Part shown: positions 21,139-46,750 of the stretch, piece after piece | How positions within the stretch are numbered: position 1 is the first letter of the stretch | How the letters are laid out: every line of letters starts with the position of its first letter | DNA from: an uncultured Planctomycetota bacterium | Lineage (GTDB): Bacteria; Planctomycetota; Planctomycetia; Isosphaerales; Isosphaeraceae | Direction: 5' to 3' | DNA length: 64,000 nt | NCBI GenBank assembly: GCA_963845755.1 | Contig: CAWJTV010000025.1 | Coordinates: 64,001-128,000, forward strand | Program-made: the position numbers and the translations under genes | The notes under the pieces: generated by a model | Told to the model about the DNA's origin: nothing | Database searches by the model: none | What the model saw: the letters and a program-made list of their open reading frames with translations, nothing else

Positions 21139-21205
21139 GGGCCAGGGTCCTGGAGAGCCAAGGAGACGGTGGCGTCCGCTGTTCCGGAGACACAGGGTTG
21201 TCTCG

Positions 21206-21325
21206 GAGTCTGTTCCCGAAGGGGCGGGTCCGGGCGAGCGGGGGGCGTCAGCCCCCTGTCCGGTCAGCGACGGCACTCGAAGACAGGGGGCTGACGCCCC
21301 CCGCTCGCCTTTCCGGAACAGACTC
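21206..21325. mobile_element. 120-bp palindromic MITE (copy 1, intergenic)
   Basis: Terminal inverted repeats GAGTCTGTTCC...GGAACAGACTC enclose an inner inverted pair, GGCGAGCGGGGGGCGTCAGCCCCCTGTC / GACAGGGGGCTGACGCCCCCCGCTCGCC. Confidence 0.8.
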
Positions 21326-21867
21326 GCAGTCGGCGACGAGGGCAGGGAGCCATTGGGCCACCTGTCGAGTATACCCCATGCGGCCAAGCGTCGCCGGTAT
21401 CCAGATTTTCTGAAGTATGTGGTCATCTGGGTCAACCTTTCATTGGTAAGGTCCCAACTGTCAACCTACTTCACCGTCTTGCCCATCCCTCTCGCACGGT
21501 ATTCGGTGGGCGGTCCGACCTCAACCTTGCGCTGCCGGCGCCGCCCGAGACGCTGAAACGCCGTCCTGGCTCCCAAGGCGATCAGGCCGGCGGCAACGCC
21601 GATCGGGAACCGCCCGACGGTCTTTCCACCGGCTTCCGGCAAGCCGCCCAATTCCTCCTCGGAGGCGCTCGTCCGTGGGTCGGTACGCGGTCCCGCCCTC
21701 CTCGGACATCGGACGGCCCGCAATCTCGGACACCACCGCATCGGCCGGTTCCACAACCGAGCCGGACGCGGTCAACGCGTACCGGGAACCCCACTCCGCC
21801 AGGATGGAGTCCCGGACGCCGTTGTGCAGGTCCGTGGATTCCCTGTGCTGCGAAAGTGCGAGCCAGA

Positions 21868-24800
21868 TCATCGAGGCCGCGTACCGTCTCTCGATGGACG
21901 AAAGCGGCTGATCGATCGAGTTGGCCGATTCCGCCCGGGTGTTTTGCGCCGGAGAATCGAGGCGTTTGAATCCCAGGATGCGCCCGCGGTCATTGCGAGG
22001 GGAACGGTCGGAGGAGCCATCACGACCGTCAACGAGGGCGAACCGATGATCAGGAGGACCGGTGACACTTGGCTGCTGGAGAAGGTGGCTCCCATCGCCG
22101 ACGTCGTGATCGGGGAGAGGTGGGTCACACCTTCCGGGAAGCCGGTCGCCGTCACCGTGCTGGAGGCCGCGGAGAGAGCCGGACTGGGACTCAGGTCGTG
22201 GCCGGATCCGCCGCTGTTGTTCGACACGACGAAGGAATCGAAGACGCTTAAGACGTCGATCGGACCGCCGTCATTCGTCCAGCTACCGTCGAGGTTGGCA
22301 TCTTGCAAGGGCCCGACCGTCGGTCCCGAGTAGGTCGTCTGCGGACCTTGATACGCCACGAGGTCGGAAACGAGAAGATTGGCCACGGGCGTTCCCAACC
22401 CGGTCACCAGATTGTAGCCCGATTCGGCGGTGTAACCGTTGGAGCCGCTGTCGATCTCGTGATAATCGGCCTGCGGCAAGCGGTACAGCGCCTGAAGCGT
22501 CTCGGTGGGGTCGGTGCTATTCAGCAGTGGCTGCGCCGCCTTCGCCCGCGCCTGGTTCACCAGCAGCAACAACCCCGCCCAGGAGGGCGCCGACAAGCTC
22601 GTGCCGCCCACGACCTCGAACGGGTCGCTGGGATCCAGATCGTACGGGTCGGCGATCCAGGCGCCGGTGGCTGGGTCGGCAACCAACGATACGTCGGGCG
22701 TCGTCCGGCTACCCAGGGACTGGACGCCCTGCTGATACGCCGGTTCGGGCTCATACAGGCTGATGCCGCCTCCCGAGCCGATGGAGGTCCCTGCGGCATC
22801 GGAATAGTAACCCCATCCCGTCTCGCTATTGTAGGAGTTATCGCCGTTGAGCGTGAGGCTGGTACCGCCGACGGCCACCACGTTCGGCGAGAACGCGGGA
22901 TACTCGGGATCCGCGACGCCATAGTCGCCGGTGCTGGCGACGAACGTCACGCCGGGCACGTTGAACTCGCTGTCGTAGGTCGCTTCATCGGCAGCGAAGA
23001 CGGCCTGGCCTTCGGGGAAGCCCCAGCTCATCGACACCACCGACACGCCGGGCTGGCTGGCTGCGGTGGCCACGCTGGCCATCAGGTCGGATAGCGACTG
23101 ACTATTGGCTTCGACGAGGATGATCTGGGCTCCGGGGGCGATGGAATGGACCCATTCGACATCGAGGGCTTCCTCGAGCTCCCAGTTGTCGGTGCCTGGA
23201 CCGGTGGGATCGGTGGAAGGCAGCGAGGTCGCCTGGCCCTGCTGGTTGAGCACGGTCAAGAACGAGGAAGCCGGGCCGTACTGGGCGAACAGCGCCGATC
23301 CGGAGTCGGTCAGGCTGAACTGGGAGTCGTAGGCGTCGAGAGACTGGTCGATGTCGGGATCATCGTAGGCGTCGACGATCGCGATGGTCTGGCCGGAGCC
23401 ATCCTGAGTCAATGCGTTGATGCCATAAGCATCCCGAATCTGGGCCGGGGTGTAGGCGACGGTGCCGGAGGGCGAGCTCAAATTGAGGCCGTCGGCGATC
23501 GCGGCGCCGCTGAGCGTCATCGTATCGACGATGATCGAGATCGTGTTCTTCGAGCTGCCGACCTGGGCGCTGCCGCTCTCGACGAGCTGGGCCGCCGGCG
23601 CGTAGATCGTGCCGGTGATCCCTTGCAAGGCGGAGCCGCTGAAGGTCAGGGCCTTGGTATTGTCGCGCCCCTGGAAGATCAGCATGCCGGCGTAGGTCCC
23701 GCTGGAGGGCGGGGTCAGGCTGACCGAGCCACTGCCGCTGAGCGTGATCGGGCCGAACGTGCCGCCGTCGGTCGTCCCGTTGTAGGCTGTACCGAAGTTG
23801 AAGATGGTCACATTGGTGCCGCTGACGGCGGCGGCTCCGGAGACCGACAGGCCGCCGCCCTCGAGGATGATCGAGGTCCCTGCGGAGATCGTGACGACGG
23901 CGCTGCCGGATGCGGTGAAGCCGCCGCCCTGGATGACGTACGTACCGGCGGCCAGGGTGACCTTGGCGGCCCCCGAGATGCTGATCTGGCTGTAGATGCC
24001 GGACTGAATGGTCGTGGTCGTGCTGCCGCTGATGGACTTCGAGCCATAGTTCGTCAGCCCGGTGGGAATCGCCGGCATCGGCAGCGCTGCGAGCGGGTCG
24101 GAGACCGCCGTGATGCCCGTCAACGGTTGCGGGCTGAGCGTCGGGCTGCCACTCTTCTGGACGCCTCCGACGACCTGGATCGCGCCGGCCTTCACCGAGG
24201 CCGTTCCGCTGATCGCGAGGGCGCTGGACGACTTTGAGTCGATCACCACGTTTCCTGGAATGTTGATGCCGGCGCTGCCCGATAAGGTGAGCGCGCCTCC
24301 GGCCGTCGGGTCGAGAATGTAGAACCCCGTGGCCATGGTGACCGTCAAGGTGCCGGACAGGAGGGTCACCGTATAGTTGGACGTCGCCCCCGTACCATTG
24401 GACAGCGTGCCCGTGATGGGATACGTGCCGGCGATGGCCGTGGTGGTATTGCCCGTGCTGCTGTAGGTGATGTCCAGGTTCTCGCCGTTGACCCCAGTAC
24501 TGATGGTCGTGCCCAGGTCGGCCGCGAGGTTGGCTGTGCTGCCGTAAAGGTGCGAGTCGTTGCCGATCTGGTCGTTGAAGGCATAGGCGGTGATCGATCC
24601 GGGACCGCTGGCCGTGGTCGGCAGCGTGTAGTTGCTGGCCAGCGTTCCGGTGCCGGCCGTGAAGTTGGTCGCGGACAGGCTGGCGGTCACCGTCGTCGCC
24701 GACACCACATTGGGGCTGTTATAGGCGCCCGTGGTCTGATTGACCGTGAAGCTCTGGCCGCTCACCAGGCCCGACAGGCTAAAGTTGGCCGAGGTCAACG

Positions 24801-27800
24801 TCGCGGTGGTCGTACCGTTGTAGGCCCTGGTGGGATCGCCGATGATCGAGGCGGTTACCGTCGCGGGAGTGATCGATCCGGCGCCGCTGGCCGTGGTCGG
24901 CAGGGTGTAGTTGCTGGCCAGCGTTCCGGAGCCGGCCGTGAAGTTGGTCGCGGAGAGGCTGGCGGTCACCGCGGTCGCCGTCGTCACATTGGCGCTGTTG
25001 TAGGTGCCCGCGGTCTGATTGACCGTGAAGCTCTGGCCGCTCACCAGGCCCGAGAGGGTGAAGTTGGCCGAGGTCAACGCCGCGGCCGTCGTGCCGTTGT
25101 AGGCCCTGGTGGGGTCGCTGACGATCGAGGCGGTCACGGTCGCGGGCGTGATCGCGCCGGCGCCGGTGGCTGTGGTCGGCAGGTGTAGTTGCTGGCAGCG
25201 TCCCCGTGCCGGCGGTGAAGTTGCTGGCGGAGAGGCCGACGGTCACCGTGGTCGCCGTGGCCACATTGGGGCTGTTGTAGGTGCCCGCGGTCTGGGTCAC
25301 CGTGAAGGTCTGGCCGCTCACCAGACCCGAGAGGCTGAAGTTGGCCGAGGTCAGTGTGGCGTTGTTCGTGCCGTCGTACGTCTTGGTGGGATCGCCGACG
25401 ATCGTGGCCGTCAACGTCGCCGGTGAGATCGTGAAGCTGGTCGTGGCGCGGGAGGCCGCGAAGTTGGCGTCGCCGGCGTACGATGCGACGACAATATAGG
25501 TTCCGACGTTGGTCGGGGCCGTGGTGCCCAGATCGCTGACGGAATCGCCCGAGACGGCGTAGTACGTCACGATGGGCGTGACGCCATCGAGGCTCGAGGA
25601 CGGCTCGATGGAGTGCGTCCCCACCAGGACTTCGGCCACCATCGGCGACCCGGTATAGGTACCGCCCGGAGCGCTCAAGGTGACCATGGTCGCGGTCGTC
25701 TGAGAGACCGTAAACGAGGACCCACCTTCTGAGCTGCTCTCCCCGGCATTCTGGAGCAGGTTCGCTCCGGTCCCGAAGGTGACGATGGCGCCGTACGGCG
25801 TACCCGGGACGACTCCCGTCGAACATCGTGACCTGGGGCGTTGTCGATACGGCGGGAGACGCCGCGGTGTACTGGATCGAGTCATTGCCGGAAGTCGCGT
25901 TTTGCGCCGAGAACGTGTACATGAAGAGCTCGTACGCCCCGTGCTCGGCGTCGTAGTACGCGGCCGGGAGGTAGTTCTGCGCGGAGGGATCGTTGAACGA
26001 CGGGTCGGTCGAGTGGAAGGCATTCACCTCCACCGTGTAGGTGCCGGTCAACGGCAGCGACACGTCGAAGATCGACGAGTCGGACGGCTCGAACTGGTCG
26101 TCGTTGAACGCGACCACCTGGCCGTTGGGACCGTAAACCGTCAGGACGGTGTCCACCGGATCCTTGATCGAGGTGACCGACGTCAACATCGCCTGGAAGC
26201 TCATCAACTGTCCGGACTGACCGGTGAAGGTGTAGTAATTGGGCTGGCTGAGCGTGAACGCGGCACTCGTCTTGGGGTCGGTCACCGGTTTGCCGCTGGC
26301 GTTGAGCACCGGCTGGGTGCCGCCGATGTAGCCGTCGATGTCCACGGCGGAGACGTCGAACGTCATGCCGGCGTCGAAGCCGGTGGTGATCGGGTTGGGC
26401 ACGTTCAGGTCGTACAGGCTCACCGGCTGGGCGATGACGGTCGTCGCGACGCCGGCGACGTTGTCGTTCGTCGAATCGACGTCGCCCTCGGCCTCCGGCA
26501 CTCCGGCGACGCCGGGCAGGTCGGGATCCTGGTCGAGCTGCACCGGATCGGTCGCTTTCTGTGCCGCCGGCACGGTCGGCACCGGCATGCCGGACCAGCT
26601 CGGGTTCGACGGGTCGGTCGCGTCCGAGGCGACCGTGGTTCCATCCGAGATGAACGCCAGGGTGATCGCGTCCCGCTCGCCGAGCTGGGCCTCGCCATCG
26701 GCCGCGTTGACGAGCGTGGAGCCCACCGACGCGGGCGACGCGATCACGTCCCCCTCCGTCGTGAACGCCCCGACCGTACCCCCGTAGGCCGGGTAGTAAC
26801 TGGACCCGCCCGGGGGACTCGAGATCCCGAACCCGACGGGGCCGATGGCGTCCATGTGCTCGAGGCCCAGCGTGTGACCCGCCTCGTGCGCCGAGATCGT
26901 GATTGACATGTTCACAAAATCGGGCAGCCCATTCATCGAATCGGCGGTCGAGTCGGGCACCAGGCCCGGTCCGGTTCCCAGGAAGCCGTTGACGTCGAGC
27001 TGCACCGTCGTCTTCTGGTTCAGGTTGCCGAAGTCGACCTCGTTGGAGAACCCGCCGGGCGACGGCTGATTGTTGAAGATCGGCGTGTCGTTGTAATAGA
27101 CCGTCACGTAGTTGCCATTGCCATTTTCGTAGACTGAATTCGTGAACGTGGGATTCACCAGGCTCGCAAGTGTCGTCACGTCGGCCGGTGTCAAATCGAT
27201 GGCCGCAAGCTGCGCCGTGGTCATGCTCCGGAGCTGTGTAATCTCCGCGGGGTCGATGGTGAATTGAATGCTCGGGCTGAGTCCCGCGTAAATCGTCTCC
27301 AGCGCCTGAAGCACCTCCTCCTGCTCGACGGCCGAATACGATCCGTTGCCGTTGTGGAAGGTCTCGGTGGGGCTGAGCACCGTGGGCGCAAACTGGGTGA
27401 AATTGAGCGCCACCCACTGGACCGACGGCGTCGAAGGGGGCACGGCCGGCAGTGCATTGGGATTGGGATTGTTCAGCGCGCTGCCCTGAAGGATGTCGTT
27501 GGTGCCGTTGCCGATGATGGTGTCGTCGCCGGGGCTGCCGACGACATTGGTGAAGGCACCGCTGGCCGGTAGGGTGATCGACAGGTCCGCGGTCGCGTTC
27601 ACGACCTGTGCCTTGCCGGTCGTGCTCAGGTTGATGTTGACCCCGCCGCCCGTGAAGTTCGAGAAGTCGAGCGTGTCGTTGCTGGCCCCGGCCGGCTCGT
27701 TCAGCGTGACGTTGCCGATGGGATTCGTCGCGGACCCGCCGACGAAGTAGACCGTGTCGTTCGACCCGCCGCCGGTGAACGTCCCACCCATCGACAGGGC

Positions 27801-30800
27801 GGCCCCGGGGACCGACGTCCCCGACGGCAGGCCGAGCTGGCTCGTGTCCCCGATGATGATGTTGTTGTCCCCACCCCCCTCGGCCGTGACGTTCGAAAGC
27901 AGGCCGCCGACCAGGGAGTTGAAGCCGCCCTGGGTTGTGACGTTCACGGCGTAGTCGGCCAGGGACGCCCCGCTCGTCACGGCCTGGTTCAGGAGCGCGA
28001 GCTGCGCCGGCGTGATCGACTCGGTGAACGTCCCCCCGGTGCCGATATTGAACGTGGAGAGCAAGCCGCCGGTCGCCTCGTTGCCGCTGCCCGGCAGGGT
28101 GACGTTCAGCCGGAAGAGGTTCAGGACCGCGGCGTTCAATGTCTGCTGGAGGGCCTGGGCGTTGGTGCCCAGGAAGGTCTGCAAGACGGACGGATTGGCG
28201 ACGAGGAACTGCTGGAGCTGGGTCGGGTCGCTCGAAAGGAACTGGACGAGGGCACTCGGGTTGGAGGTCAGGTATTGCTGGAGCGAGGCCGGGTTGGTGT
28301 TGAGGAATTGCTGGAGCACCGTCGAGTTGGCGGACAGATACTGCTCCAGCGAGGTGGGGTTGCTGGCGATGAACTGCTGGAGCACCGTGGCGTTGCTGGC
28401 CAGGTACTGCTGGATCACGGTCGGGTTGGCGGTCAGGTAGCCCTGGAGGACGGTGGAGTTGCTGTTGATGTACTGCTGGAGGTCGCCCGGGTTGCTGGTC
28501 AAGTAGGCCTCGAGTCCGGCCTCGTCCCCGCTGACGTACGCCTGGTTCGCCGCGCTGTCGCCCGCGAGGAACGCGTTCAAGGCGGTCGAGTTCGAAGCGA
28601 GGTAGGCGGTAATGCCAGCGACGTTCTGCTGGATGTAGGCCTGCTGCGCGGCCGTGTTGCTGTTGAGGTACTGTTGCAAGATCGCGGGGCTGGACGTGAG
28701 ATATTGCTGGAGGGCCGTCGTGCTGCTGGTCAGGTATTGCTGAAGCACGGCGGGGTTGGCCAGGAGGTACTGCTGCAATCCATCCGGGTTGCCCGTCAAG
28801 TACCCCTGGAGTCCGGTGGCGCTTCCTTGCAGGTAAGCCTGGTTCGCCGCCGGATTGTTGCCCAGGAAGGCGCTCAAGCTGGCCGGGTCGGTGGCGAGGT
28901 ATTGCTGGAGACCGGTCGAGCCGTTGGTGAGGTAGGCCTGATTGGCCGCCGAGTCGCTGCCGAGGTAGGCGCCGAGGCTGGCCGGGTTGCTGGTCAGATA
29001 AGCCTGGAGACTGGAGGCACCCCCTTGCAGATACGCCTGGTCGGCCCCCTGGTCGCTGCTGAGGTAGGCGCTCAAGCTGGCCGGGTCGGTGGCGAGATAC
29101 TGCTGGAGGCCGGCATCACCGCCTTGCAGGTAGTCCTGATCGGCCGCGTTGTCGTCGCCTAGGTAGGCGCTGAGGCTGGTCGGGTTGCCGGTCAGGTAGG
29201 CCTGGAGTCCGGTCGTGCCGCCGTTCAGGTAGGCTTGCTGGGCCGCGGAGTCGCTGCCGAGGTAGGCGCTCAGCGCGTCGGAGTCGCCGAGGATGTAGGC
29301 CGAGACCCCGGCGAAATTCGCTTGCAGGTAGGCCTGCTGGGTGACCGCGTTGGCCGCGAGGTACTGGGCGACGGCGGTCGCGTTCTGCTGCAAATACGAC
29401 TGGAGGGCGGCCGGGGCCGTCGCCAGGTATTGCTGGAGCGACGCCGGGCTGCCGGTCAAGAACTGCTGGAGGGCGGTCGGGTCGCCGGCGATGTACTGCT
29501 GCAACGCGGTGTTGCCGCTGTTGAGGTACGTCTGGAGGACCGTGGGGTCGCCCGTCAGGTACGCCTGCAGGCCGGTGGCGGCACCTTGCAGGTAGGCCTG
29601 GTCGGCCGCCGAGTTGCCGCTCAGGAAGGCGCTCAGGATCGACGGATTGCCGATCAGGTAGGCCTGGAGGCCGGCGGTGCCGCCTTGCAGGTAGGCCTGC
29701 TGGGCCGCGGTGTTGCCGCCGAGATAGGCGCTCAGGCTGGTTGGGTTACTGGCGAGATACGCCTGGAGGCCGGAATCGCCGCCTTGCAGGTAGGCCTGGT
29801 CGGCCGCCGAGTTGCCGCTGAGGAAGGCGCTCGAAGCTGGTCGGGTCGGTGGCGAGATAGGCCTGGAGGCCGGCGGGGCCGTTCTGCACGTACGCCTGCT
29901 CGGCACTGGAATCGCTGTCGAGGTAGGCGCTCAGGCTGGCCGAGGCGCCACCGAGGAACGCCTGGAGCGTCCCGGGGTTGGCGCCGATATACTGCTGGAG
30001 GACGGTTGGGTTGCCGGTGATGTATTGTGCCAGGACGGTCGGATTGGCGCTCAGGTACTGCTGGAGCACGGTCGGATTGGCGGAGAGATACTGCGACAGG
30101 GCGGTGGGGTTGACGCTGAGATACTGCTGGAGGACGCCCGGGTCGCCCGTCAGATAGGCCCCCAGGCCGGTGCTGCCCCCTTGCAGGTACGCCTGCTCCG
30201 CCGCCGGGTTGGTGCTGAGGAAGGCGCTCAAGCTCGTCGGGTTGGTGGCGAGATACGCCTGGAGGTTGGCGCCGCCGCCTTGCAGGTAGGCCTGGTCGGC
30301 CGAGGCGTTACTGCTGAGGAAGGCGCTCAGGCTGGCCGGGTTGGTGAGGAGATACGCCTGGAGTCCGGTCGAGCCGTTGGTGAGGTAGGCCTGGTTGGCC
30401 GCCGAGTCGCTGGCGAGGTAGGCGCTCGAAGCTGGTCGGGTTGTCGGCCAGGTAGGCCTGGAACCCCGTAACACTTCCTTGCAGATAGGCCTGCTTCGCC
30501 GCCGAGTCGCTGCCGAGGTAGGCGCTGAGGCTGGCTGGATTGCTGGTCAGGTAAGCCTGGAGGCCGGAGGCACCCCCTTGCAGGTAGGCCTGGTTGGCCG
30601 CGGAGTTGCCGCTGAGGAAGGCGCTCAGGCTGGACGGGTCGGTGGCGAGATACGCCTGGAGTCCGGAGCCGCCGCCTTGCAGGTAGGCTTGCTCCGCCGC
30701 GGAGTCGCTGACGAGGTAGGCGCTCAAGCTGGTCGGGTTGCCGCCGAGGAATGCCTGGAGCGATCCGGGGTTGGTGCTCAGGTAGCCCTGGAGGCCGGTG

Positions 30801-33800
30801 CCGCCCCCTTGCAGGTAGGCCTGGTTCGCCGCCGAGTTGCTGCTCAGGTAGGCGCTCAGGCTGGCCGGGTCGGTGGCGAGATACTGCTGGAGTCCGGTCG
30901 AGCCGTTGGTGAGGTAGGCCTGGTTCGCCGCGGGGTCGCTGCCGAGGTAGGCGCTCGAAGCTGGTCGGGTTGGCGCTGAGGTAGGCCTGGAGCCCGGATC
31001 CGCCCCCAGTCAGGTAGGCCTGGTCGGCCGCGTTGTTGCTGCCGAGGTAGGCGCTCAGGGCGGTGGGGTTGGCGCTGAGGTAGGCCGAGACGGCGGCGGA
31101 GTTCGCCTGGAGGTACGCCTGCTGCACGGCCGGGTCGGTGGCGAGATAGGCCGAGATGCCGGCCGAGTTCGCAGTGAGGTAAGCTTGCTGCGCGGTCGTG
31201 TTGCTGGCGATGTAGGCCGAGACGCTGGCGGAGTTCTGGCTGAGGTAGGCCTGCTCGGCGCCGCTGTTGCTCCCCACGTACTGGCTGACCGCCGTCGCGT
31301 TCTGCTGGAGGTAAGCCGAGAGCGAGGTCGGGTTCGCGGCGAGGTACTGTTGCAGGACGCTCGGGTTGCCGCTGAGGTACGCCTGCAAGATCGTGGGGTT
31401 ATCCGACAGATACTGTTGCAGCGCGGTCGAATTCCCCGCGAGGTATTGCTGCAAGACGCTGGGGTCGCCCGTCAAATAGGCCTGGAGGCCGGCGGCACCG
31501 CCTTGCGTGTACGCCTGATTGGCCGCGGAGTTGTTCCCGAGGAAGGCGCTCAAGCTGGCCGGGTCGGTGGCGAGATACGCCTGGAGGCCGGTGGGGCCGC
31601 CTGAAGTGTACGCCTGATTGGCCGCGGGATCGCTGCCGAGGTAGGCGCTCAGGCTGGCTTGAGCGCCGCCGAGGAACGCCTGAAGCGTCCCGGGGTTGGC
31701 CGTCAGGTAGGCCTGGAGGCCGGCACCGCCCGACGCCAGGTACGACTTCGAACCGGGGTAGGCCGTCTCGAAGGCGCTCAGCGCGGCGGTGTTGCCCGCG
31801 ATGTAGGCCGTGACGCCGGCGGAATTCGCCTGGAGGTACGCCTGCTGCGACGTCGGATTGCTGACGATATAAGCCGAGACGGCGGCCGAGTTCGCCCCCA
31901 GGTAGGCCTGCGCGGCCGCCGGGTTGTTGGCCACGTACTGGGCGACCGCGGCGGAGTCTTGCTGGAGGAAGGCCTCTTCCGTGGTCGGGTCGCCGGTGAT
32001 GTACTGGGCGACGGCCGTCGAATTCTGAGCGAGGTAGGCTTGCTCGGCGACCGGGTTGGTGACGAGGTACTGCTGGAAGACCGCCGGGCTGCTGCTGAGG
32101 TATTGCTGGAGCGCGGCGGTGTTGCTGCCGAGGTACTGTTGGAGGACCGTCGGATTGCTCACCAGGAATTGCTGCAAGGACGCCGGGTTGCCGGCGATGT
32201 ACTGCTGCAACACGGTCGCGTTGCTGGCCAGGAACTGTTGCAGGACCGTGGGGTTGCCCAGGATGTATTGCTGGAGCGTGGTGGGGCTGCTCCCGAGATA
32301 CGCCTGCAAGACCCCTGGGTTCTGATTGATGAAGGACTGGAGCGACCCGATGTGGCCCGCCAAGTACGACTGAAGGCTGGTGTTGCCCCCTTGCAGGTAG
32401 GCCTGATTGGCCGCGGAGTCGCTGGCGAGGTACGCGTTCAAGGCGGCTGGGTTCGAGGTGAGGTAGGCGCCGATGCTGGCAACGTTCTGCTGGATGTACG
32501 ATTGCTGGGCCGTGTTGTTGCTGCCGAGGTACTGCTGGATGATCGTGGGGCTGCTGACGAGGTATTGCTGCAACGCAGCCGGTTCGCCGGCCATGTACTG
32601 CTGGACAACCGTGGGGCTCAAGGAAAGGTATTGCTGGAGCGTCGTCGGGTTGCCCGAAAGGTACTGCTGCAAGGTGGACGGGTCGCCGCTCAGGTATTGC
32701 TGGAGGATGGCCGGGTCGCCCGCCAGGTACGCCTGGAGGCCCGTGCCGCCCCCTTGCAGGTACGCCTGGTTGGCAGCCGAGTTGCTGCCGAGGTAGGCAC
32801 TCAAGCTGGTCGGGTCGGTGGCGAGATACGCCTGGAGGCCGGCGGGGCCGCCTGAAGTGTACGCCTGATTGGCCGCGCTGTCGGTGGCGAGGTAGGCGCT
32901 CAAGCTGGTCGAGTTGGCCGTCAGGTAGGCCTGGACGCCGGCGCCGCCCCCTTGCAGGTACGCCTGATCCGCCGCGGAATTGCCGCTCAGGAAGGCGCTC
33001 AAGGAGGCGGGGTTGGTGGCGAGGTACGCCTGGAGCCCGGCACCACCGCCTTGCAGGTAGGCCTGGTTGGCCGCCGAGTCGCTGCCGAGATAGGCGCTCA
33101 GGCTGGCCGGGTTGCCGACGATGAAGGCTTGAAGGACTCCGGGGTTGCTGCTCAGGTAGGCCTCGAGCGAGGAGACGCCCGACTGCAAGTAGGCCTGGTC
33201 GGCCGCGGGGTTGCTGTCCAGGAAGGCGCTCAGGCTGGTGGAGTTCGCAACCAGGTAGGCGCTCACCCCCGCGGGGTCCGACTGCACGTACGCCTGGGTC
33301 GCGGCCGAGTTGCCTGCAATGTACTGGGCGACGGCCGTGGCGTTCTGCTGGAGGTAGGCCTGGAGGCCGGTCGGAGAGCTGGCCAGGTACTGCTGGAGGA
33401 CCGTCGGACTGCCGCCGAGGAACTGCTGGAGCACGCTCGGATTCGCGGAGAGGTACTGCGACAGGGCGGTCGGGTTGGCCAGGAGATACTGCTGGAGGAC
33501 GGTCGGGTCGCCGGTCAGGTAGGCCTGGAGGCCGGAACTGCCGCCTTGCAGGTAGGCCTGATCGGCTGCCGGGTTGGTGCTGAGGAAGGCGCTCAAGCTG
33601 GTCGGGTTCGTGACCAGGTAGGATTGCAAGCTGGCGCCGCCGCCTTGCAGGTAGGCCTGATCGGCCGCCGGGTTGGTGCTGAGGAAGGCGCTCAGGCTGG
33701 ACGGGTTGGTGAGGAGATACGCCTGGAGTCCGGTCGAGCCGTTGGTGAGGTAGGCCTGGTTGGCCGCCGAGTCGCTGCCGAGGTAGGCGCTCAGGCTGGT

Positions 33801-36800
33801 CGGGTTGTCGGCCAGGTAGGCCTGGAACCCCGTAACACTTCCTTGCAGATAGGCCTGCTTCGCCGCCGAGTCGCTGCCGAGGTAGGCGCCGAGGCTGGCC
33901 GGGTTGCTGGTCAGATACGCCTGGAGGCCAGTGCTGCCCCCCGTCAGGTAGGCCTGATTCGCCGCGGAGTTGCCACTGAGGAAGGCGCTCAAGCTGGACG
34001 GATCGGTGACGAGATACGCCTGGAGGCCGGCGCCGCCGCCGAGCAAGTAGGCCTGATTGGCCGCGGAGTCGCTGGCGAGGTAGGCGGTCAAGCTGGTCGG
34101 GTTGCCGCCGAGGAATGCCTGGAGTGAGCCGGGGTTGGTGCTCAGGTAGCCCTGGAGGCCGGTGCCACCCCCTTGCAGATACGCTTGATTGGCCGCCGAG
34201 TTGCTGCTGAGGTAGGCGCTCAAACTGGCCGGGTCGGTGGCGAGATACTGCTGGAGACCGGTCGAGCCGTTGGTGAGGTAGGCCTGATTGGCCGCGGGGT
34301 CGCTGCCGAGGTAGGCGCTCAAGCTGGTCGGATTGCTGCTCAGGTAGGCCTGGAGCCCGGTGCCGCCCCCCGTCAGGTAGGCCTGGTTCGCCGCGTTGTT
34401 GCTCCCGAGGTAGGCGCTCATCGCGCCGGGGTTGGCGACGAGGTAGGCCGAGACGGCGGCGGAGTTGGCTGCCAGGTAAGCCTGCTGGGCGGAGGGGTTG
34501 CTTGCAACGTAGGCCGAGATGGCGGCCGAGTCCTGGCTCAGGAACGCCTGCTGCGCGGCCGGGCTGCTGGCGATATAGGCCGAGACGGCGGCGGAGTTCG
34601 CGGCCAGATAGGCCTGATCCGCGGCGGAGTTGCCCGTGATGTACTGGGAGATGGAAGTCGCGTTCTGCTCGAGGTACGCCTGCTCGGCCGATGGGTTGGT
34701 AATGAGGTAGGCCGCAAGGCTGCTGGGGTTGCTGTTGAGGTACTGCTGGAGGGCCGCCTCGTTGCCGGCGAGGTATTGCGACAGCGCCGTCGGGTTGCTC
34801 TCCAGGTACTGCTGGAGGACCGTCGGGTCACCCGCCAGGTAAGCCTGCAAGCCGGTGGCGCCCCCTTGCACGTAGGCCTGCTGGGCTCCCGGGTTGCCGC
34901 CGAGGAAGGCGCTCAAGCTGGACGGGTTCGTGATCAGGTACGACTGGAGGCCGGAACCACCCCCTTGCAGATACGCTTGATTGGCACCCGGGTTGCCGCC
35001 GAGGTAGGAGCTGAGGCTGGCCGGGTCGGTGGCGAGATACTGCTGGAGACCGGTCGAGCCGTTGGTGAGGTAGGCCTGATTGGCCGCAGCGTCGGTGGCG
35101 AGGTACGCATTGAGGCTGGCCGGGTTGTCGATCAGGTAGGCCTGGAAGCCGGTCTCGCTTCCAGTCAGGTAGGCCTGATTGGCCGCCGAGTTGCCGCCGA
35201 GGTAGGCGCTCAGGCTGGCCGAGTTGCCGATCAGGTAGGCTTGGAGGGCGGTGTTGCCCCCTTGCACATAGGCCTCGTTCGCGGTGGGGTTGCCGCTCAG
35301 GAAGGCGCTCAAGGAGGCGGGGTTGGTGGCGAGATACGCCTGGAGCCCGGCACCACCGGCTTGCAGGTAGGCCTGATTGGCCGCCGAGTCGCTGCCGAGG
35401 TAGGCGCTCAAGCTGGTCGGGTCGCCGCCGATGAAAGCCTGAAGCGTTCCGGGGTTGCCCGTCAAGTACCCCTGGAGACCGGTGCCGCCCCCTTGCAGAT
35501 ACGCTTGATTGGCCGCCGAGTTGCTGCCGAGGTAGGAGCTGAGGCTGGACGGGTCGGTGGCGAGATACTGCTGGAGACCGGTCGAGCCGTTGGTGAGGTA
35601 GGCCTGATTGGCCGCGGGGTCGCTGCCGAGGTAGGCGCTCAAGCTGGTCGGGTTGCTGCTCAGGTAGGCCTGGAGGCCGGTGCCGCCCCCCGTCAGGTAG
35701 GCCTGGTTCGCCGCGTTGTTGCTCCCGAGGTAGGCGCTCAAGGCGGTGGGGTTGCTCGCGATGAAGGCCGAGACGCCCGTGGGGTCCGCCTGGAGGTACG
35801 CCTGCTGCGAGGCCGGATTGCTCGCGATATAGGCCGAGACACCCGTGGAGTTCTGGCTCAGGTATGCCTGCTGCGCGGCGTTATTGCCGGTGATGTACGC
35901 GGCGACCGACGATGCGTTAGCTTCGAGGTACGCCTGCTCGGCGTCCGGGTTGCTGGCGATGTACTGGGCGACCGCCGTCTGATTCTGCTGGAGGTACGCC
36001 TGGGCCACGGCCGGGTTGTCGGCGATGTACTGGGCGACCGCCGAAGAGTTCTGGCTGAGGTACGCCTGCTGCGCCGCCGAGTTGCCCGCGACGTACGCGG
36101 TGAGAGCCGCCTGGTTCGAACTGAAGAAGGCCTGGACGGACGTGGGATTGACGGCGATGTACTGGGCGAAGGCCGTCGCGTTGGCCTGGAGGTAGGCCTG
36201 CTGCGCGGCGATGGAGCTGTTCAGGTAAGCCTGTGCGGCCGTCGCGCTGCCGGTGACATAAGCGTTCACCGTGTTCAACGTTGACGAGTCGGACGACTGG
36301 ACGACCTCGTTGCCGCCGCTGAAGGCCTGGACGTTCGAGCCCTGGGCGCCGAAGACCTTGTTGCCGGTGCCCACCAGGACGATGCTCGTGCCGGGTTGCT
36401 GCGTCGTGCCGTTGCTGGATGCCGGCGCTGCATAGAGGGTGTCGTCGTTGCCGCCGACGACGGTCTGGATCGTCCCCTTGATACTCAGCGACGCCGTCGA
36501 GTTCGACTGCAGGAGGCTGGGGTCGACCAGCGACCCGATGTCGGGATCGTCAACCGCGGTGCTGTAAATGATCTGGCTCTGCCCGACGTCCAGGTTCATG
36601 TTGACGGTCACGCCGATCACTTCGGGCGTCGAGGATTTCTTGACCAGCGTCGTCGACAGGAAGGCCTGGGTGAGGTCGAGGGTGTTGGACCCGCTATTGG
36701 TCACCACGGTGTCGTTGAAATTATTGTTGGGATCGACCTGGAACGTATTCTGGCTCCCCGTCGGGCCCCCCACGAATGTCACGTTGGCGAGTTGGGTTCC

Positions 36801-39800
36801 GGTCTGGATGAACGTAGTACCGACCGGACCGCCGATGACGGTCAGGGGGTCGAGGTTGCCCTGGACGACGACCGTCACGGGGACCTGGGTGTTCGAGAGA
36901 TCGAGTCTGGCCGTGATGGGGCTGACCACGATCGTTACCGAGGAGGACGACGCGTCGTTGATCGACCTCTCAGCGCCGGTATTCTTCGTGATCGTCCCGC
37001 CGAACGTCAGGCCTCCCTCACCGTTGATCGTGGCCTGCGACCCGATGACCACGTTATTGTTCAGGCTGGCCTGGCCGGTCGTGGTGATCCCGCTCCCGTC
37101 GATCTCGGTCGTGCCGAAGGGCGCGGTCGTCATCGAGGCCACCGACACCGCCCCGAGGAAGGTCGTGACGCCGACGGTGCTGACGTCCAGCGCGAACGGG
37201 CCGGTCACGGTACTGGCATACCGGAGGTTGCCGTCGTCGGTGCTCGTGAAGGTCGCGTCGGCGCTGAGCGTCACTGGCTCTTCGTAGTCCTGGTCGCCGG
37301 TGGTCGTGACGCCGCCGCCATTAATGTCGGTCGTACCCCCGCCTTTGGTGGTCAGCCTGGAGAGCCGCTGGTCGCCGCCCACGAGCCCGAGGAACGTGAT
37401 GACGCCCAGCGAGACGAGCGTCAGCGCGGCGACGCCATCAAGTGCGTCGGAGAACGTGATGTTGCCACTTGAGGTGCTCGTCAAGGTCAGGTCAGACCCG
37501 AACGTGACCGCCCCTGTGAACGACTGATCGTCGGTCGTGTTGATCTGGGAAACGCCCAGGCCCAGCGTCGTGGTCCCGATAACCGTCAGCGAACCGAGCG
37601 CGAGCAAGCCGGCGCCGGCATCGCCCACATCCCCGGCGAAGCTGGCGTTGCCGTGGACCGTCAGGTCGTTGGCCTGGTTGACGTCCTGAATCGCGCGGCC
37701 GAAGGAGACGGTCGAGCCGGTCAGCACCGCGCTCGAACCGAGCGTCACCGCCCCCGAAAACGTCTGCCCGTTGACCGTGTTGACCTCCGACAGGCCCGGG
37801 CCCAGGAGGGTGCTCCCGGTGACCGTCAACGAATTGAGCGCGAACAGGCCGGCGCCGGCGGCGCCGACATCCCCGCCGAAGCTGACGTTGCCGTCGATGG
37901 TCAGGCTGTACGAGGCATTTTCGTCTTGAATCGCGCCGCCGAAGTTGATCGTCGAGCCGGTGAGCACCGCGTTCGTGGCCAGCACCAACCCTCCCTCAAA
38001 CGTCTGGTCGCCGACTGTGTTGATCTGAGACAGACCCGGATTCAACGTGGTGGTCCCCGTGACGGTCAGCGAATGGAGAGCAAAGTCGCCGGCGCCCGCA
38101 TCGCCCACATCCCCGTTGAAGATCGCGTTGCCGTTGACGGTCAGATCGTTGGGTTGGTTGACGTCGACAATCGGGCCGTTGAAGGCGACCGTCAACACAT
38201 TGAGCACGGCGCTGGTACCGAGCGTCACCGTCCCGCCGAACGTCTGCCCATTGACGGTGTTGATCTGGGAGAGACCCGGGTTCATCGCGGTCGTCCCGGT
38301 GACGTTCAACGAATTGAGTGCGAACAGGCCGAAGACGGGATCGCCCACGTCCCCGCCGAAGCTCGCATTGCCGTTAACCGTCAGATCCCACGGCTGGTCG
38401 AAGCCGTCAATCGCGCCGCCGAAGGTGACCGACGACCCCGTGAACACTGTGTTCGAGCCCGCGATGTTCATCGTTTCGGCATAGGCCTGCGCCCCGGTCG
38501 TCTCGATGGTCAAGGAGGGATTGAACTGGAACTCGCTCACGTCGGTGACATCGCCGGACACATCGAGCGAGGCGAGCGGGACGCCCACTCCGACGTTCCC
38601 GTCGAAGACAATGCCGCCGCCGGCGCCGACGATCGAGACCGGATCCGCGCCCGGGGTCGTCCCGTCGAGCGTGGAGAGGAACCAGATGCCGTATCCGTTA
38701 AAGGTGATCGAGGAATCGACCGTCACCGGGCCCTGGTATTCTTGTTCGTTTGTCGCATTCGTGGTGTTGACCTGAGATACCCCCGTACCGAACGCAGTGG
38801 TCCCGGAGACATTCAGCGAGTCGAGCGGGAACAAGCCGGCGCCGGCGTCGCCGATGTCGCCGTCGAAACTGGCGTTGCCGTCGATCGTCAGGTCGTTCGG
38901 TTGGTTGCGGTCGTTAATCGGCCCGCCGAAGCTGAAGTTCGGCCCCGACAACACCGTGCTGGCATCGAGGTAGGTCGTTCCGGTGACGGCAAAGGAACCG
39001 GCCGACGAAACCGAACCGCCGGACACGAAGAAGGTGCCCAAGGTGACCGTACTGCCGGTCCCGACGGTGAATGTGCCCGCGTTCGTCAAGCGGTCCACGG
39101 AGAGACTGCCACCGTTGGCGACATCGAGTTGGCCGCCATTGAACAGCCCGCCAGCAAGGCCCGTCACGAAGTTGGAGGTGACGTAAGAGTTGGACAGCGT
39201 GATCGTGCTGCCACCCGCGTTGTACAGGCCGCCGCCGTCCGTGGCGGCGGTGTTGCCGGTGACGGTGACACCGCTGAGCGTAGCCGTGCCATTCTTGTTG
39301 TACAGCCCGCCGCCGACCGTGGAGGCGGTGTTCTCGGCGATGGTGACATCGCTGAGCGTAGTCGTGCCCGCGTTGGACAGCCCGCCGCCGCTACCGGTCG
39401 CATTGCCGTCGGTGATCGTCAGTCCCGAGATGGACGCGGTGACATTCGCGTCGACCTGGAACACCCGGCTGAGCCCCCCGCCGCTGATGGACAGCGCGGC
39501 GGCCGGACCGCTGATCGAGGTGGAGAGCGCCCGATTGCTCAGCTCGAGCTGCGTGCCGGTCAGCGTGATGGTCTGCGCCGTGTTGAAGACGGTGGGATCG
39601 AAGGAAATCGCCGTGCCGGCGTACTCGTCCGCGAGGCTGACGGCGCCGGAGAGGGTCAGGCCGGCGGGGTTAGTGACGACCGTCGCGGACGACGACTCGA
39701 CGACCAGGGAGACCTGGAAGGCGCCGATGTCCACGATGTTGCCGCGGATCAGGCTGCGCTGGTCGGTGGTGAGGCCCGGGACGCTGGTGCCCGCGCCGAT

Positions 39801-42800
39801 GGCCGGGCTGCCGGGCAAGAGCGGGATCACGTCCGTGAATCCGCCGTAGGTGTCCAGGGTGCCCAGTCCGGGATCCGCGACGCCGACCTGGTTGCCGTTG
39901 ACCCCGTCGGCCAGCCCGCCGGAACCCCCCGTCCCGATCAGGTTGTGCGTCCCGGAGACCGATCCGACGCCGCGAATGTCGTTGGCGACGCCGCCGAAGT
40001 AGCTAATGTTCCCGGCGACGATCGTGTCGGTGAGTGCGACCGATCCCCCCGCATACAGGCCGGCGCCGTGAGGCGAATGGTTCCCGGTGACCGTGCAGGC
40101 GATCATCTGTAACGTACCACCGCCCTGGTTCACCCCGCCGCCTTGGAAGTCGGCCGTGTTATTGAAGATGGTGGAGTTCGTGATCGTCAGAGACCCGCTG
40201 GCTACGCTGATCCCACCGCCCAGAGCGGCGTTGTTACCGCGGAAGGTCGAGCCCGTGATCGAGCCGGACGCGCTGTTGGCGATGGAGAAGCCGCCGCCGG
40301 TTGACGTGGCCGTATTACCGGTGAAATCGCATTTCTCGATCTGGAAATGGGACTGGCCGATGGCGCGGAAAGCCGCGCCATGATTGAGGGCACGATTGTC
40401 GAGGAACGTCGAGTCGAGAACCGTGATCGACCCGTCATCCAGCACCCCCCCGCCGACCGCGCCCGTGTTGCCCTGGATCGTACATTCCCAGAGCGTGAGC
40501 GTGCCGGCGTCGTCGATCCCGCCCGCATGTCCTGAGGAGGTGTCCTTGCCCCCGGTGATCGCCAGGCCCCCGATGTAGGCCGTGACGCCCAAGTCGATCT
40601 GGAAGACCGTGCTCAGGCCCCCGCCGCTGACCGTCACGAATCCGTAGATCGAGGTCGTCAGGCTGCTAGTGTTGCTCAATTCGAGCGGGGTGCCGGCCAG
40701 CGTGATGGTCTGCGATGAATTGAAGACCCCGGAATCGAACGTGATCGATGACCCGGCGAACTGGTTCGCGAGGCTGACGGCGCCGGGGAGAGTCAGCCCG
40801 GTGGCGGTGGTCACGACCGCTGCGGACGGCGACTCGACGACCAGCGAGGTCTGGAAGGCGCCGATGTCCACGGTGTTGCCGCGGATCAGGCCGCGCTGGT
40901 CGGTGGTGAGGCCGCTGACGGTCGTGCCCGCGCCGATGGCGAGGCTGTCGGGCAACAGCGGGATCGTCTGGGTGGGACCGCCGTAGTTTCCCAGGGTGCC
41001 CAGATCGGCATCCGCGAAGACCTGGTTGCCGCCGACCCCGTTGGTAAACTGGCCGGAACCGTCGCTCCCGATCAGGTTGTACGTGCCGGAGAGCGTGCCG
41101 GGATTGGCCCCACCTCTGGAGGCATCGATGTCGCTGTCGATGCCCGCGTTGCCGGAGACGATGGTGTCGGTGAGGACCGTCGCACCCCCACGGGCGTAGA
41201 TCCCGCCGGCGTACCACGCCGTGTTCGCCGTGATCGTGCAGGCCGTCAGGTAGGCGGTAGAGCCAAGACTGTCATCAACCAACACGCCGCCTCCTAATCC
41301 CAGGCTGGCGACGGTGTTCCCCGTGATCGTGCAGTTCACCATCGTCAACGCTTTCGGGCTGTCGGAGTCCGTATACACCCCGCCGCCGTTGACGGCGGTG
41401 TTGCTGACGATCGTGCAGTCGGTGATCGTGACGAGAAAGTCGCCCACGTAAAGGCCGCCGCCATTCCCGGTTGCGGAGTTGCCGCTGACGGTCGAGTCGG
41501 TCAGCGTGGCTGAGCAGTGGTCGAGGTTGAGGCCGCCGCCGATTCCGCCCGAATTACCGGTGATGCTCGAGCTGTAAATAAAGAAGATCCCTCTATAGCT
41601 CGTGACACCGCTGTCGCCTGTATTTCCGCTGATGGTGCAGCCAGTCAGCCGGATCGTACCAAAGAAGTTGTCCAGTCCACCGCCCGTGTTGCCACTGATG
41701 GTGGAGTTCGTGATCGTGGGATTGGAACCATAGATACTTGCGAGGCCGCCCCCGCTGCTGGCCGTGTTGCCGCTGACGATGCAGTTGGTAAACGTGGGAT
41801 CGGCGTCTCTGTAAAACGCTCCGCCGCCACTCCCGGTTGCGGAGTTGCCGCTGAGGGTACAGCCGATCAGAGTGAACGGGAGTAAGCCGACGCTGTAGAT
41901 GCCGCCGCCATTCCCGGTTGTGGAGTTGCCGCTGAAAGTACAATTGGTCATCGTCAGCGTACCGCTGTTGCTCACGCCGCCGCCGTTGCCGGTGACCGAG
42001 CCACCGGTGATCGTCAGCCCCGAGAGGGACGCTGTGACACTCGCGTCAACCTGGAACACCCGGCTCGTCCCGCCGCCGCTGACGATCACGCCCGCCGGCG
42101 TGCCGGAGCTCGTGATCGTCTGGGTCCCGCCGGTGTTGCTCAGCGTGAGCTGGCCGCCAGTCAGCGTGATCGTATGCAAGCCAGAGGTGAAGACGGACGA
42201 GTTGAAGGTGATCGACTCGGCGGCGCCCAGCACATTCGCCAGGTTGACCGCCTGGCGGAGGTCCAGGTCTCCCGACGGGGAGACGTTGCCATCGATCGTG
42301 GTGTTGACGACCAGGGAGTTGGTCTGGAAGGCGCCGATGTCGGGATTGGGCGAGTCGAGCGGGAAGCCGCGCTGGTCGGTCGTGACGCCATTAAGGGCCG
42401 CGCCCCGCCGATGGCGGGGCTGCCGGGCAAAAGCGGGATGGTCTCAGTCGGCCCGCCGTACTCGCCCAGGGTCCCGAGATCCGCGCTCACGCCGATCTTG
42501 TCGGTGCCGACCCAACCGCTGTTGCCGGAGGTGTTGCCGATCAGGTTGTGGCCCTGGGAGGTGAAACTCCCATCCGCATCGGGGTCGGTGGAGGCCGTGT
42601 TTCCCGCCACGATGGTGTTGCCGAGGGTGAAAGTGCCGCCGCCAGTCACCTTGTACACGCCGCCGCCTTCGTTCGCGGTGTTGCCGCTGACGGTGACGTT
42701 GGTGAGCGTGGGCGTGCCGCCGCAGTCCATCGCGCCGCCGTAGTTTGCGGCGGAGTTTCCGGAGAAGGTGCAGTCGGTGAGCGTGGCCGTGGCGCCGTTG

Positions 42801-45800: not shown

Positions 45801-45850
45801 ACCGTCAACTGCCTGCGTCGTCGCTGATCCTTCGCTCCGTTGCGACCCAT
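21868..45850 (-). CDS. Giant (~8,000 aa) surface protein: beta-helix modules, 11-mer repeat tract, metzincin, Ig-like repeats and S53 peptidase; multiple frameshifts
   Basis: GAGGAG RBS, ATG at 45850, TLEDRRLMS leader. Continuous across ORFs 42161..46144, 30327..42233, 30308..30727, 29746..30474, 25134..29906, 24779..26023 and 21868..25137, with single-base shifts near 42400, 30957, 30428, 29833, 25830 and 25190. The true C-terminus may extend to ~21466. Confidence 0.8.
22360..23460 (-). other. Sedolisin (peptidase S53) domain of the giant protein
   Basis: YTPAQIRDAYG, GQTIAIVDAY, ELEEALDVEW (Glu/Asp), ASTGDYG, RTTPDVS, VGGTSLSAP (catalytic Ser), YNLVTGLGTP. Confidence 0.9.
26640..27420 (-). 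other. Metzincin-type zinc metalloprotease domain of the giant protein
   Basis: HEAGHTLGLEH (HExxHxxGxxH) at ~26855-26888, preceded by RTX-like GDDTIIGNGTNDILQG and followed by a PPC-like domain. Confidence 0.8.
28140..36270 (-). repeat. Coding tandem array of roughly 240-250 11-residue (33-bp) repeats
   Basis: Units such as ANQAYLQGGGT / GLQAYLATDPA / SLSAYLGSDSA / VLQQYLTSNPT, with Y or F followed by L or I every 11 residues over ~8.1 kb. Confidence 0.95.
39100..45720 (-). repeat. Five parallel beta-helix (Pmp-like GGG[ILV]) modules, each closed by a choice-of-anchor-Q-like motif
   Basis: Recurrent T(V/I)SGN(S/T)AxxGGG(L/I) units; LGxxGGxT...LLxGSPAIxAG...TTDQR...DIGA(F/Y) motifs near 44600, 43400, 42400, 40930 and 39790. 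Confidence 0.8.
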
Positions 45851-46750
45851 CAACTTCTCCTCTGGTGATGTACAACCCCGGATGATGAATGTAATGATCA
45901 GAACTCCACGAACGCCCCTACACGGCTGGCTGTGGGTCTCGACCGGACCTGCCCCGTTCCGAGTTAGTACGGCCCGCACCGCGTCGGGCACTACGAATGA
46001 TTTCTCCAGCATGAATCCCGGTAATGCCCGCGACGTGGCGGGCGCGAGGCCAGTGGCCGTCGTCGTGCCGGCCGGAAGGGTCGAGGTGGGCTGCGACCGG
46101 ACGAACCGCGACGACATCACGGACAACATCCCGGAGGTCGTCACGGCCCGCAGTCGGCTCGCGGGGCGAGGCCGCTGGATCCAACGTTTCGATCATCAGT
46201 TTGCTTCTTCAGCGCAAGGATTCAAAACGTGCGTATGGCATCAGCGATGCCGTGTTTTCTCGCGTCGTCCCAATCGCCTTCGGCGGCGATGTAAGAATCC
46301 AGCACGTGGCAGTATAGAGCAACGCACTTATGTGTGCCTATCCCTTGGGATGTTGTTCGTTACGAGGTTCGAAACACAGGAACCTTGGTCGTCTTGAAGA
46401 TCTCCGGCCGCCCCATCGTCGGTCCAATGCCAAACTCGCTGGAATCAACAACTTCGGCCTGCGAGGGGATCGTCGTTGTTTGCCCGTGGCCTTCGTTGAC
46501 CTCGTGCGCCCCCAACCACGGATCGTATCCGCACGCTTTCTTTCCAAAAGGTTCGCCTTTTTTGGCGCACCGGTCGTGCGAATCGAAGGTTCGAGTGATG
46601 CCATCATTCTTCTCAATGGGTGCGAGGACGGAACACCTTGCGCGGCGAGGACCTTTCGACGCAGCGATCGCCGATAGGATGTGTCCGAGCCGCGACCGGC
46701 CCGAGCACCTAGGCCGCCCAGATCACCGGACGACCGATCCATGAAGGTGC

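Follow-up and report, generated by a model that had tools for sequence, protein, structure and literature searches.

A conserved 11-residue repeat array, predicted to be helical, in a probable giant gene of an uncultured soil planctomycete

We analyzed a stretch of 64,000 nucleotides from the genome of an uncultured bacterium of the planctomycete family Isosphaeraceae (assembly GCA_963845755.1, contig CAWJTV010000025.1, positions 64,001 to 128,000; the whole stretch is hereafter the window) and found on its minus strand a tandem array of an 11-residue peptide unit repeated about 246 times. The unit is built around an invariant aromatic position, is almost free of charge, is predicted to be helical, and has been kept in phase over some 2,700 residues in an array that is old. 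The array most likely lies within one giant gene of a soil Planctomycetota genome, whose multidomain product would reach ~8,100 residues provided that seven single-base shifts in frame are bridged. The repeat is an undescribed family that most likely fills a known role, by which giant surface proteins are extended. The reading that we favor, tentatively and with belief and doubt close to balance, is that the array is a long, nearly uncharged, length-variable helical spacer.

The repeat unit, its age and its relatives

28131..36266, minus strand: array of ~246 units of 11 residues (translation, unit cutting, repeat and self-comparison)
31749..31778, minus strand: sole irregular unit, of 10 residues, SAFETAYPGS, in the context '...AALSAFETAYPGSKSYL' (unit cutting)

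The first unit starts at window position 36266, directly after the residues '...TLNTV', and the last ends at 28131, directly before AVLNLFRLNVTLPG. The array thus spans 8,136 nt, which, less three inserted bases discussed below, correspond to 2,711 amino acids or the above ~246 units, partial and junction units included. Unit statistics were taken from 241 complete in-register units (2,651 residues) cut from four frame segments. Position 3 is aromatic in every one of them (Tyr in 206, Phe in 35), position 4 is Leu, Ile or Val in 236, position 7 is Asn or Asp in 179 and position 8 is Pro in 113, resulting in the consensus [Q/S][A/Q][Y/F][L/I]x[G/S/T][N/D/G][P/S][A/T][A/S/G][L/N/V]. The composition is dominated by Ala (18%), Leu (13%), Ser (12%), Gln (11%), Gly (9%), Tyr (8%) and Asn (7%). 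Charged residues are scarce, with 74 Asp, 20 Glu, 3 Lys, a single His and no Arg (~0.1% basic residues), and Met occurs just twice in the 2,651 residues.

The units follow three sub-grammars: doublets of the type AQQAYLSQNSS/AVAQYIADNPA, triplets that cycle through D/N-S, GGG and D/N-P turns (the corresponding class string 'SGP' was counted 25 times), and runs of VLQQYLxxNPT. The first-pass annotation of this DNA, made from the letters alone, had placed the array at 28140-36270, which is within 10 nt of the boundaries given here. It had likewise estimated 240-250 units, remarked on the near absence of Lys and Arg and distinguished the same three sub-grammars, and unit cutting bears out each of these points. 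The phase of the repeat is strict: one frame segment alone (frame A) holds 1,769 residues in exact 11-residue register except for a single one-residue deletion. The irregular unit at 31749-31778 is a punctuation element (...AAF-x-x-S-x-LY-x-x-YL...), seen once in the window and about five times in the orthologue L001 from genome G070, where such elements split the array (residues ~640-1450) into super-repeats of roughly 135-265 residues.

At the DNA level 232 of the 241 units are distinct, and their mean pairwise identity is 54%. The conserved residues are specified by varied synonymous codons, with the position-3 Tyr encoded by TAC 165 times and by TAT 41 times, and the position-4 Leu by CTC (108), CTG (80) and TTG (9). 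Tandem Repeats Finder reported periods of 33, 66, 99, 198, 231, 297 and 330 nt with matches of 61-84%. The best internal self-matches reach 84% over 227 nt and 78.7% over 2,145 nt, and no self-match of more than 84% identity over at least 150 nt is present in the array. The longer of these reflects an ancient segmental duplication of 2.1 kb within the array (29552-31658 versus 32918-35021, 78.7% identity). Since the mean DNA identity of the units is so low and no self-match exceeds 84%, the array is not an expansion created during assembly; it is old, and neither recently nor artificially expanded. Its regularity goes far beyond what chance would produce. Short-read contigs from two runs on soil metagenomes (X1 and X2) agree with ~2 kb of the array, differing from it at 0-1 positions. 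That the phase and the residues are maintained despite 54% DNA identity and varied codons argues for selection on the peptide and its period, and we regard the repeat as being under purifying selection. A search of the entire 14.27-Mb, 49-contig genome uncovered no second array, making it a single-copy feature.

A phmmer search with 60 units against 1.84 billion cluster representatives recovered 82 matches at E <= 1e-3, with 22 of these at E <= 1e-10. About 60 of the 82 were rejected as family members, being unrelated 11-residue Tyr-periodic tandem repeats or low-complexity sequences (e.g. P0012, P0023, P0027, P0031, P0043 and P0053), while ten contain the motif G[TS]GN.A[ST]GG of the domain that follows the array. 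The two named records among the relatives are metagenome-assembled genomes of uncultured Planctomycetota. A survey of Planctomycetota with a profile of the array (A4), as had been proposed along with the initial description, revealed a restricted distribution: matches are found in 5 of the 121 genomes that belong to the same GTDB family as the organism, representing 4 of its 53 genera, and in none of 400 genomes sampled elsewhere in the phylum. Within the genus itself, genome G046 (87% complete) has no match to the profile. In all five genomes with the array it co-occurs with the full post-array domain.

The array varies widely in length, with ~30 and 70 units in G054, 110 in G100, 111 in G106, 138 in G070, more than 80 in L002 and ~246 in the window, and the orthologues are single open frames of 3,429-6,533 residues through the array. 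Comparison of the window with L001 showed a unit-by-unit correspondence at the start and at the end of the array and differences by blocks in the middle; the C-terminal third together with the post-array domain is 58% identical over 926 residues. In L002 the triplets and doublets are nearly identical to one another, which points to recent local expansion in that array. Together with a very long open reading frame (ORF) and modules at its termini, a central array of varying copy number gives the locus the make-up of a variable repeat extender, in the window only if the seven frame changes are read through.

The giant gene and its frame changes

Very long open frames form a chain on the minus strand that begins at 46144 and ends at 21868. 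Its parts, with the frame changes that interrupt it, are as follows:

42406..46144, minus strand: N-terminal part, an Arg-rich leader with TLEDRRLMS, then right-handed beta-helix modules and choice-of-anchor Q (ORF 42161-46144; Pfam Beta_helix 7.8e-18; NCBIfam choice_anch_Q 4.9e-43, three stretches)
42400..42410, minus strand: frame change in a G run that is one base short (GGCGGGGCGCGG); '...SPAIGG' resumes as AALNGVTTDQRGF in the next frame
36267..42405, minus strand: beta-helix, choice-of-anchor Q and Pmp-like modules and roughly 100-residue beta-rich repeats up to the array (Pfam Beta_helix 7.8e-25, six stretches; NCBIfam choice_anch_Q 2e-28, POMP_repeat)
30957, minus strand: frame change 1 of the array, an extra C (three-frame reading)
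30428, minus strand: frame change 2, the same extra C, after which the incoming frame stops at 30327 (three-frame reading)
29833, minus strand: frame change 3, the same extra C, missing in a short-read contig (frame reading and contig)
27483..28130, minus strand: conserved beta domain that follows the array ('LFRLNVTLPGSGNEATGGLLSTFNIG...'), with an RTX-like roll at its end (AlphaFold2, predicted local distance difference test (pLDDT) ~88-92, all beta)
26856..26888, minus strand: metzincin-type zinc-binding motif HEAGHTLGLEH (translation; motif also in P0001 and P0008)
25190..25820, minus strand: three single-base frame changes, one extra base at ~25815 and two missing at ~25195 (three-frame reading)
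21868..25242, minus strand: C-terminal part, YDG/MBG Ig-like modules, a beta-rich region and a sedolisin (S53) peptidase domain (Pfam YDG 2.3e-17, MBG_2)
~22384-23244, minus strand: the sedolisin (S53) domain (PDB sedolisin 2.8e-15, residues 87-373 of ORF 21871-23502)

There are five choice-of-anchor Q domains in all, each N-terminal of the array. On the other side of it, the end of the post-array domain resembles serralysin-type RTX rolls, an RTX domain being its top, if weak, Foldseek match (E 0.036); a search with this 227-residue domain retrieved 11 relatives, none with a specific name, among which PF08548 and PF00353 are found. No solved relative of the domain with the metzincin-type motif was detected by sequence search of the PDB. 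Judging from these motifs, the protein would carry two putative peptidase modules, the sedolisin and the metzincin-motif domain. All of the protein is acidic and poor in Lys and Arg (0.8-3.6% across the non-array segments), with the array as the extreme. The leader (46000-46144, minus strand) belongs to a 'LEDRRLMS' type, [LVM]E[DEQ]RxL[LMP][SA], that precedes at least 36 open frames in the genome (at least 200 residues after the motif, median 905), and resembles an export or sorting leader specific to the lineage, with no hydrophobic signal peptide of the classical kind. According to PMC5177795, Planctomycetes typically have giant genes, most of which are thought to encode surface proteins whose structure is unknown.

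As assembled, the array is not one open frame. The giant gene has seven single-base frame changes across ~24 kb, three of which fall inside the array and consist of the identical insertion of a C, with AGCTTGAGC written as AGCTTCGAGC. In our judgment the gene is probably a single ORF of ~8,100 codons and the array shifts are consensus errors. We read them so because a 151-nt contig of run X1 (window 29717-29868, depth 2), otherwise identical to the window with 0 mismatches, lacks exactly base 29833; because the array is in one frame at all five orthologous loci read, as well as in L002; because the frame changes outside the array sit in short G/C runs; and because a neighboring Ser/Thr kinase gene is also split. 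In the latter, the kinase domain is distributed over two overlapping ORFs (47335-49096, minus strand), with positions 7-90 of the Pkinase profile in 48227-49096 and positions 120-212 in 47335-48315; here, too, the assembly probably contains a frame error of a single base.

Several points weigh against this reading. The three insertions are identical and occupy homologous sites, which is odd for random error, and four other units with the same 11-mer context are free of the insertion; hence, neither random nor context-driven error explains all three neatly. Moreover, the incoming frame as assembled ends at 30327, and read evidence bears on one of the three insertion sites only, at a depth of 2. 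Positions 30957 and 30428 have no cover in runs X1 and X2, with only ~20-nt fragments over them in run X3, and apparent joints based on pieces of 20-30 nt were disregarded. The short-read run may be the source sample. All three insertions sit in the downstream copy of the 2.1-kb duplication.

Alternatively, the frame changes could be real, with the gene decaying or truncated or the array in part a product of assembly, such that the full array was never one protein. For this speak the sheer number of the changes, the termination of the incoming frame, the lack of a match in the 87% complete genome of the same genus, and the lack in the short-read runs of any contig that spans the array. However, the segments following each shift encode flawless units in their own frames with no stops, no internal duplicate exceeds 84% identity, and the short-read contigs agree with ~2 kb of the array almost to the base while one of the three insertions is absent from one of them. 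Furthermore, the remaining shifts in G/C runs and the split kinase gene are as expected of consensus errors. We consider decay or truncation very unlikely. We also rejected programmed +1 frameshifting at AGC-TTC-G, since neither a slippery nor a hungry-codon context is present, the orthologues are unshifted and one of the sites is absent from the reads.

The GC-rich repeat also keeps other frames open over the array, for 700-1,140 codons, and the +1 frame (31399-34827, minus strand) reads as a Pro/Arg-rich 'RLPRQRLGG...' polypeptide. We rejected these alternative-frame and antisense ORFs (34173-36284, plus strand; 31399-34827, minus strand) as genes, regarding them as by-products of the repeat. 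Such out-of-frame stretches are also seen within the metagenome homologues P0005 and P0007, and therefore arrays of this repeat family appear to be often mis-framed in assemblies. More generally, frame errors in the repeat arrays of long-read metagenome genomes can split giant genes, a point that matters for gene calling.

Predicted structure, resemblance to known families and possible role

Each unit bears the signals of a short helix: Gly, Ser or Thr at position 6, Asn or Asp at position 7, Pro at position 8, and hydrophobic residues in an i, i+3, i+4 pattern (L11, Y3, L4). We obtained two AlphaFold2 models. The first, comprising the last 15 units and the post-array domain (11 sequences), has one 10-residue helix per unit, with pLDDT of 86-91 for residues 11-50 and 46-63 for residues 71-180 and a predicted template modeling score (pTM) of 0.58. 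The second, comprising 21 units of the triplet zone (21 sequences), is all-helical with a mean pLDDT of 67.6 and a pTM of 0.35. In both, the helix breaks fall on the Asn or Asp that precedes Pro. Because the sequence itself supplies a Gly/Ser stop at position 6, an Asx-Pro start at positions 7 and 8 and the i, i+3, i+4 face, short capped amphipathic helices are well supported, which does not extend to the way they pack. A Foldseek search of the PDB with the first model gave no match at E <= 0.001, and a VIA-align search of 48,161 chains with the second gave none at Z >= 5, which for models of such limited confidence is no sign of a new or different fold.

These results sort the structural proposals of the first-pass annotation. 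Its view of N-P and D-P as helix starts agrees with the breaks and the 10-residue helices of the models, and the modeling that it recommended gave an all-helical repeat. Its one helix per 11 residues holds at the N-P and D-P turns and not at the GGG and D/N-S turns, through which the modeled helices run. Its solenoid with a stacked Tyr ladder does not find support in the low pTM values, in these uninterrupted helices or in the comparison with solved folds, where nothing rose above noise. Its stalk or fibre is a plausible deduction from the gene context and from the length variation of the orthologues.

No array stretch is individually significant for any Pfam model and no NCBIfam model matches, in line with the initial impression that the repeat belongs to no named family. 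Sequence and profile searches of the PDB yielded no relevant relative of the repeat, the ESM Atlas no usable match, and the limited library of literature that we searched no description of 11-residue Tyr/Pro helical repeats in bacteria or of repeats in planctomycete giant genes. What Pfam does return for the array are whole-sequence sums with 0 stretches, namely F54D1_6_C (50.6 bits), STI1-HOP_DP (49.9 bits, cut-off 29.1), BCA_ABC_TP_C (36.2 bits) and N_Asn_amidohyd (27.6 bits), along with UBQLN1 (20.1 bits, cut-off 27) and Ddi2_HDD below their cut-offs. These sums are read as reactions to the composition and period of the repeat, and only the STI1-type models share its grammar.

The STI1/DP domains (Sti1/Hop DP2, the C-terminal domain of Sgt2 and the STI1 domains of ubiquilin; PF17830, PF23195) also have ~10-residue amphipathic, Gln/Leu-rich helices with an Asx-Pro start that recur about every 11 residues ('NPxxLQQYLxxNP'). 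However, each of these Met-rich, charged domains stands alone in its cytosolic cochaperone and packs five or six helices into ~55 residues, whereas the array strings together ~246 consecutive units that have Tyr where STI1 domains have Met and hardly any charge, in a giant protein that appears from its leader to be exported. In PMC8010706, STI1/DP2 and SRP54M are presented as flexible five-helix hands with hydrophobic, Met-rich grooves; PMC13083928 similarly describes STI1-type domains as flexible helices with a hydrophobic groove. The loose likeness to STI1 noted by the first annotation is real at the level of the grammar, the STI1-type models being the only ones in Pfam that share it, and membership in the family fails on the domain-level score, the Met content and the context.

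It is nevertheless conceivable that the array acts as a string of such helical hands, in which flexible amphipathic helices form hydrophobic grooves that grasp amphipathic peptides, lipids, hydrophobic polymers or each other, thereby presenting a multivalent binding or condensing surface and not a passive spacer. Besides the reactions of the STI1-HOP_DP, UBQLN1 and Ddi2_HDD models, PF17830 or PF23195 is precomputed on 7 of the 11 relatives of the post-array domain, including the window's own ORF (PF23195 on seven, PF17830 on two). The top-scoring structural rows for the second model are also folds of this kind, namely the SRP54 M domain (Z 4.3), the Ddi2 HDD (3.4) and Rad23 (3.2), and a flexibility like that which PMC8010706 attributes to STI1/DP2 and SRP54M would explain the low pTM. 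Yet all these Z scores are under the noise level of the tool for helical models, no STI1 chain emerged from the PDB profile search, single Pfam stretches of significance are wanting, and two Met residues in 2,651 contrast with the Met-rich grooves described. Moreover, flanks of beta-helix, choice-of-anchor Q, RTX-like and sedolisin modules speak for a giant exported protein and not for a cytosolic TPR/UBL cochaperone. We regard this possibility as unlikely; if the array did bind flexibly through many grooves, STI1-type helical hands would have in it their first counterpart that is bacterial and extracellular.

Other families with an 11-residue period are more distant. Amphipathic 11-mer repeats are known from group-3 LEA proteins, alpha-synuclein and perilipin, and in apoA-I the helices are punctuated by Pro, as they are here. 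The exchangeable apolipoprotein repeats (PF01442) share with the array the period, the helix propensity and a hydrophobic stripe. However, they have polar faces strongly charged with Lys and Glu and mostly 22-residue helices, whereas the array has an uncharged face (K 3, R 0, E 20) and is capped or broken at intervals of 11 (or 22) residues; the Pfam Apolipoprotein model scores 27.7 bits on the downstream piece against a cut-off of 90, with 0 stretches. An ice-binding 11-mer like that of type I antifreeze proteins (type-I-AFP-like) was rejected, as the Pro and Gly breaks exclude a continuous helix. Beta-solenoid stalks (RTX roll, right-handed beta-helix, pentapeptide) are ruled unlike the array, which is predicted to be all-helical, the Beta_helix, choice_anch_Q and RTX-like signals being confined to the flanks.

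A further possibility is a disordered or elastomeric tract of stickers and spacers, in which spaced Tyr and Leu stickers in an uncharged polar background would serve to tether entropically, to build a matrix or gel that adheres to itself, or to be cross-linked through Tyr. The composition, rich in Gln, Asn, Ser, Gly, Thr and Ala and with almost no basic residues, is suited to this, as are the moderate to low confidence of the structure models and a low language-model recognition score from the Atlas (789). A loose tract of this kind is, however, hard to reconcile with 2,651 residues that keep strictly to an 11-residue phase, but for one indel, at 54% unit identity, with terminal units conserved one by one between species, or with the i, i+3, i+4 hydrophobics and Asx-Pro caps that are the signature of a helix. 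We consider it distinctly improbable.

The extenders and stalks of giant bacterial surface proteins are commonly tandem Ig-like, G5-E or beta-helix repeats, i.e. beta-rich domains of 50-110 residues. The array resembles them in being a long mid-protein tandem repeat of varying copy number (~30-246 units) with functional modules at the ends of the protein; it differs in its 11-residue, predicted helical unit, and no such extender family matches it in Pfam or NCBIfam. Under the helical-spacer reading that we favor, each unit would form a 9-10-residue amphipathic helix, started by an Asn/Asp N-cap and Pro and closed by Gly or Ser, with a Leu-x-x-Tyr-Leu face that would pack against the neighboring units. 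The array would then be a low-complexity helical spacer or stalk between the N-terminal beta-helix, which may bind or anchor to a surface, and the beta-roll, metzincin-motif and sedolisin modules at the C-terminus. The reach from the beta-helical to the protease-bearing parts would be set by the array, whose length may be adjusted as whole units, doublets and triplets are gained and lost. We know of no such type of helical spacer in other giant surface proteins.

Some of the evidence runs counter to this proposal. The pTM values and repeat pLDDT mostly of 50-80 leave the tertiary packing uncertain, and helices that run through GGG and D/N-S turns are, at least for GGG, physically doubtful. Super-periods of 11, 22 and 33 residues in the same array fit poorly with a single rigid solenoid geometry. 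Further, the giant protein has neither a classical signal peptide nor a recognized cell anchor, with its presumed export resting on the lineage-typical leader. A more specific form of the proposal, namely that the array is an ordered alpha-solenoid of a new fold class, in which every 11 residues contribute one capped helix of 9-10 residues to a continuous, almost charge-free Tyr/Leu ladder, appears doubtful to us. Such a rod of 2,711 residues might measure roughly 80-400 nm, that is ~400 nm with the helices end to end and ~80-120 nm with two or three helices per 1-nm turn.

The locus would add a repeat type that lies outside Pfam, NCBIfam and the PDB: an 11-residue, Tyr-laddered, almost charge-free helical unit whose phase is kept over 2,700 residues. 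Should the array fold, its unit would, to our knowledge, be the smallest of any helical solenoid and could offer protein design and materials a simple scaffold that can be tuned. An ordered Tyr-ladder solenoid, if true, would have the shortest helical repeat known to us and would in addition constitute a new design principle for the surface stalks of bacteria.

Neighboring genes

The neighbors of the giant gene code for Ser/Thr kinases with TPR or WD40 domains, and secretion genes are not found among them. Downstream of it, large ORFs with FG-GAP, CARDB, BNR and SdrD-B-like domains occupy 16086-21435 (minus strand), and their frames overlap by 350-630 nt, which suggests either that further frame errors are present or that another large surface protein is encoded there. 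Elsewhere in the window, and unrelated to the array, two adjacent genes at 7616-10469 (plus strand) encode an apiosidase-like glycoside hydrolase and 'collagen-binding' domains.

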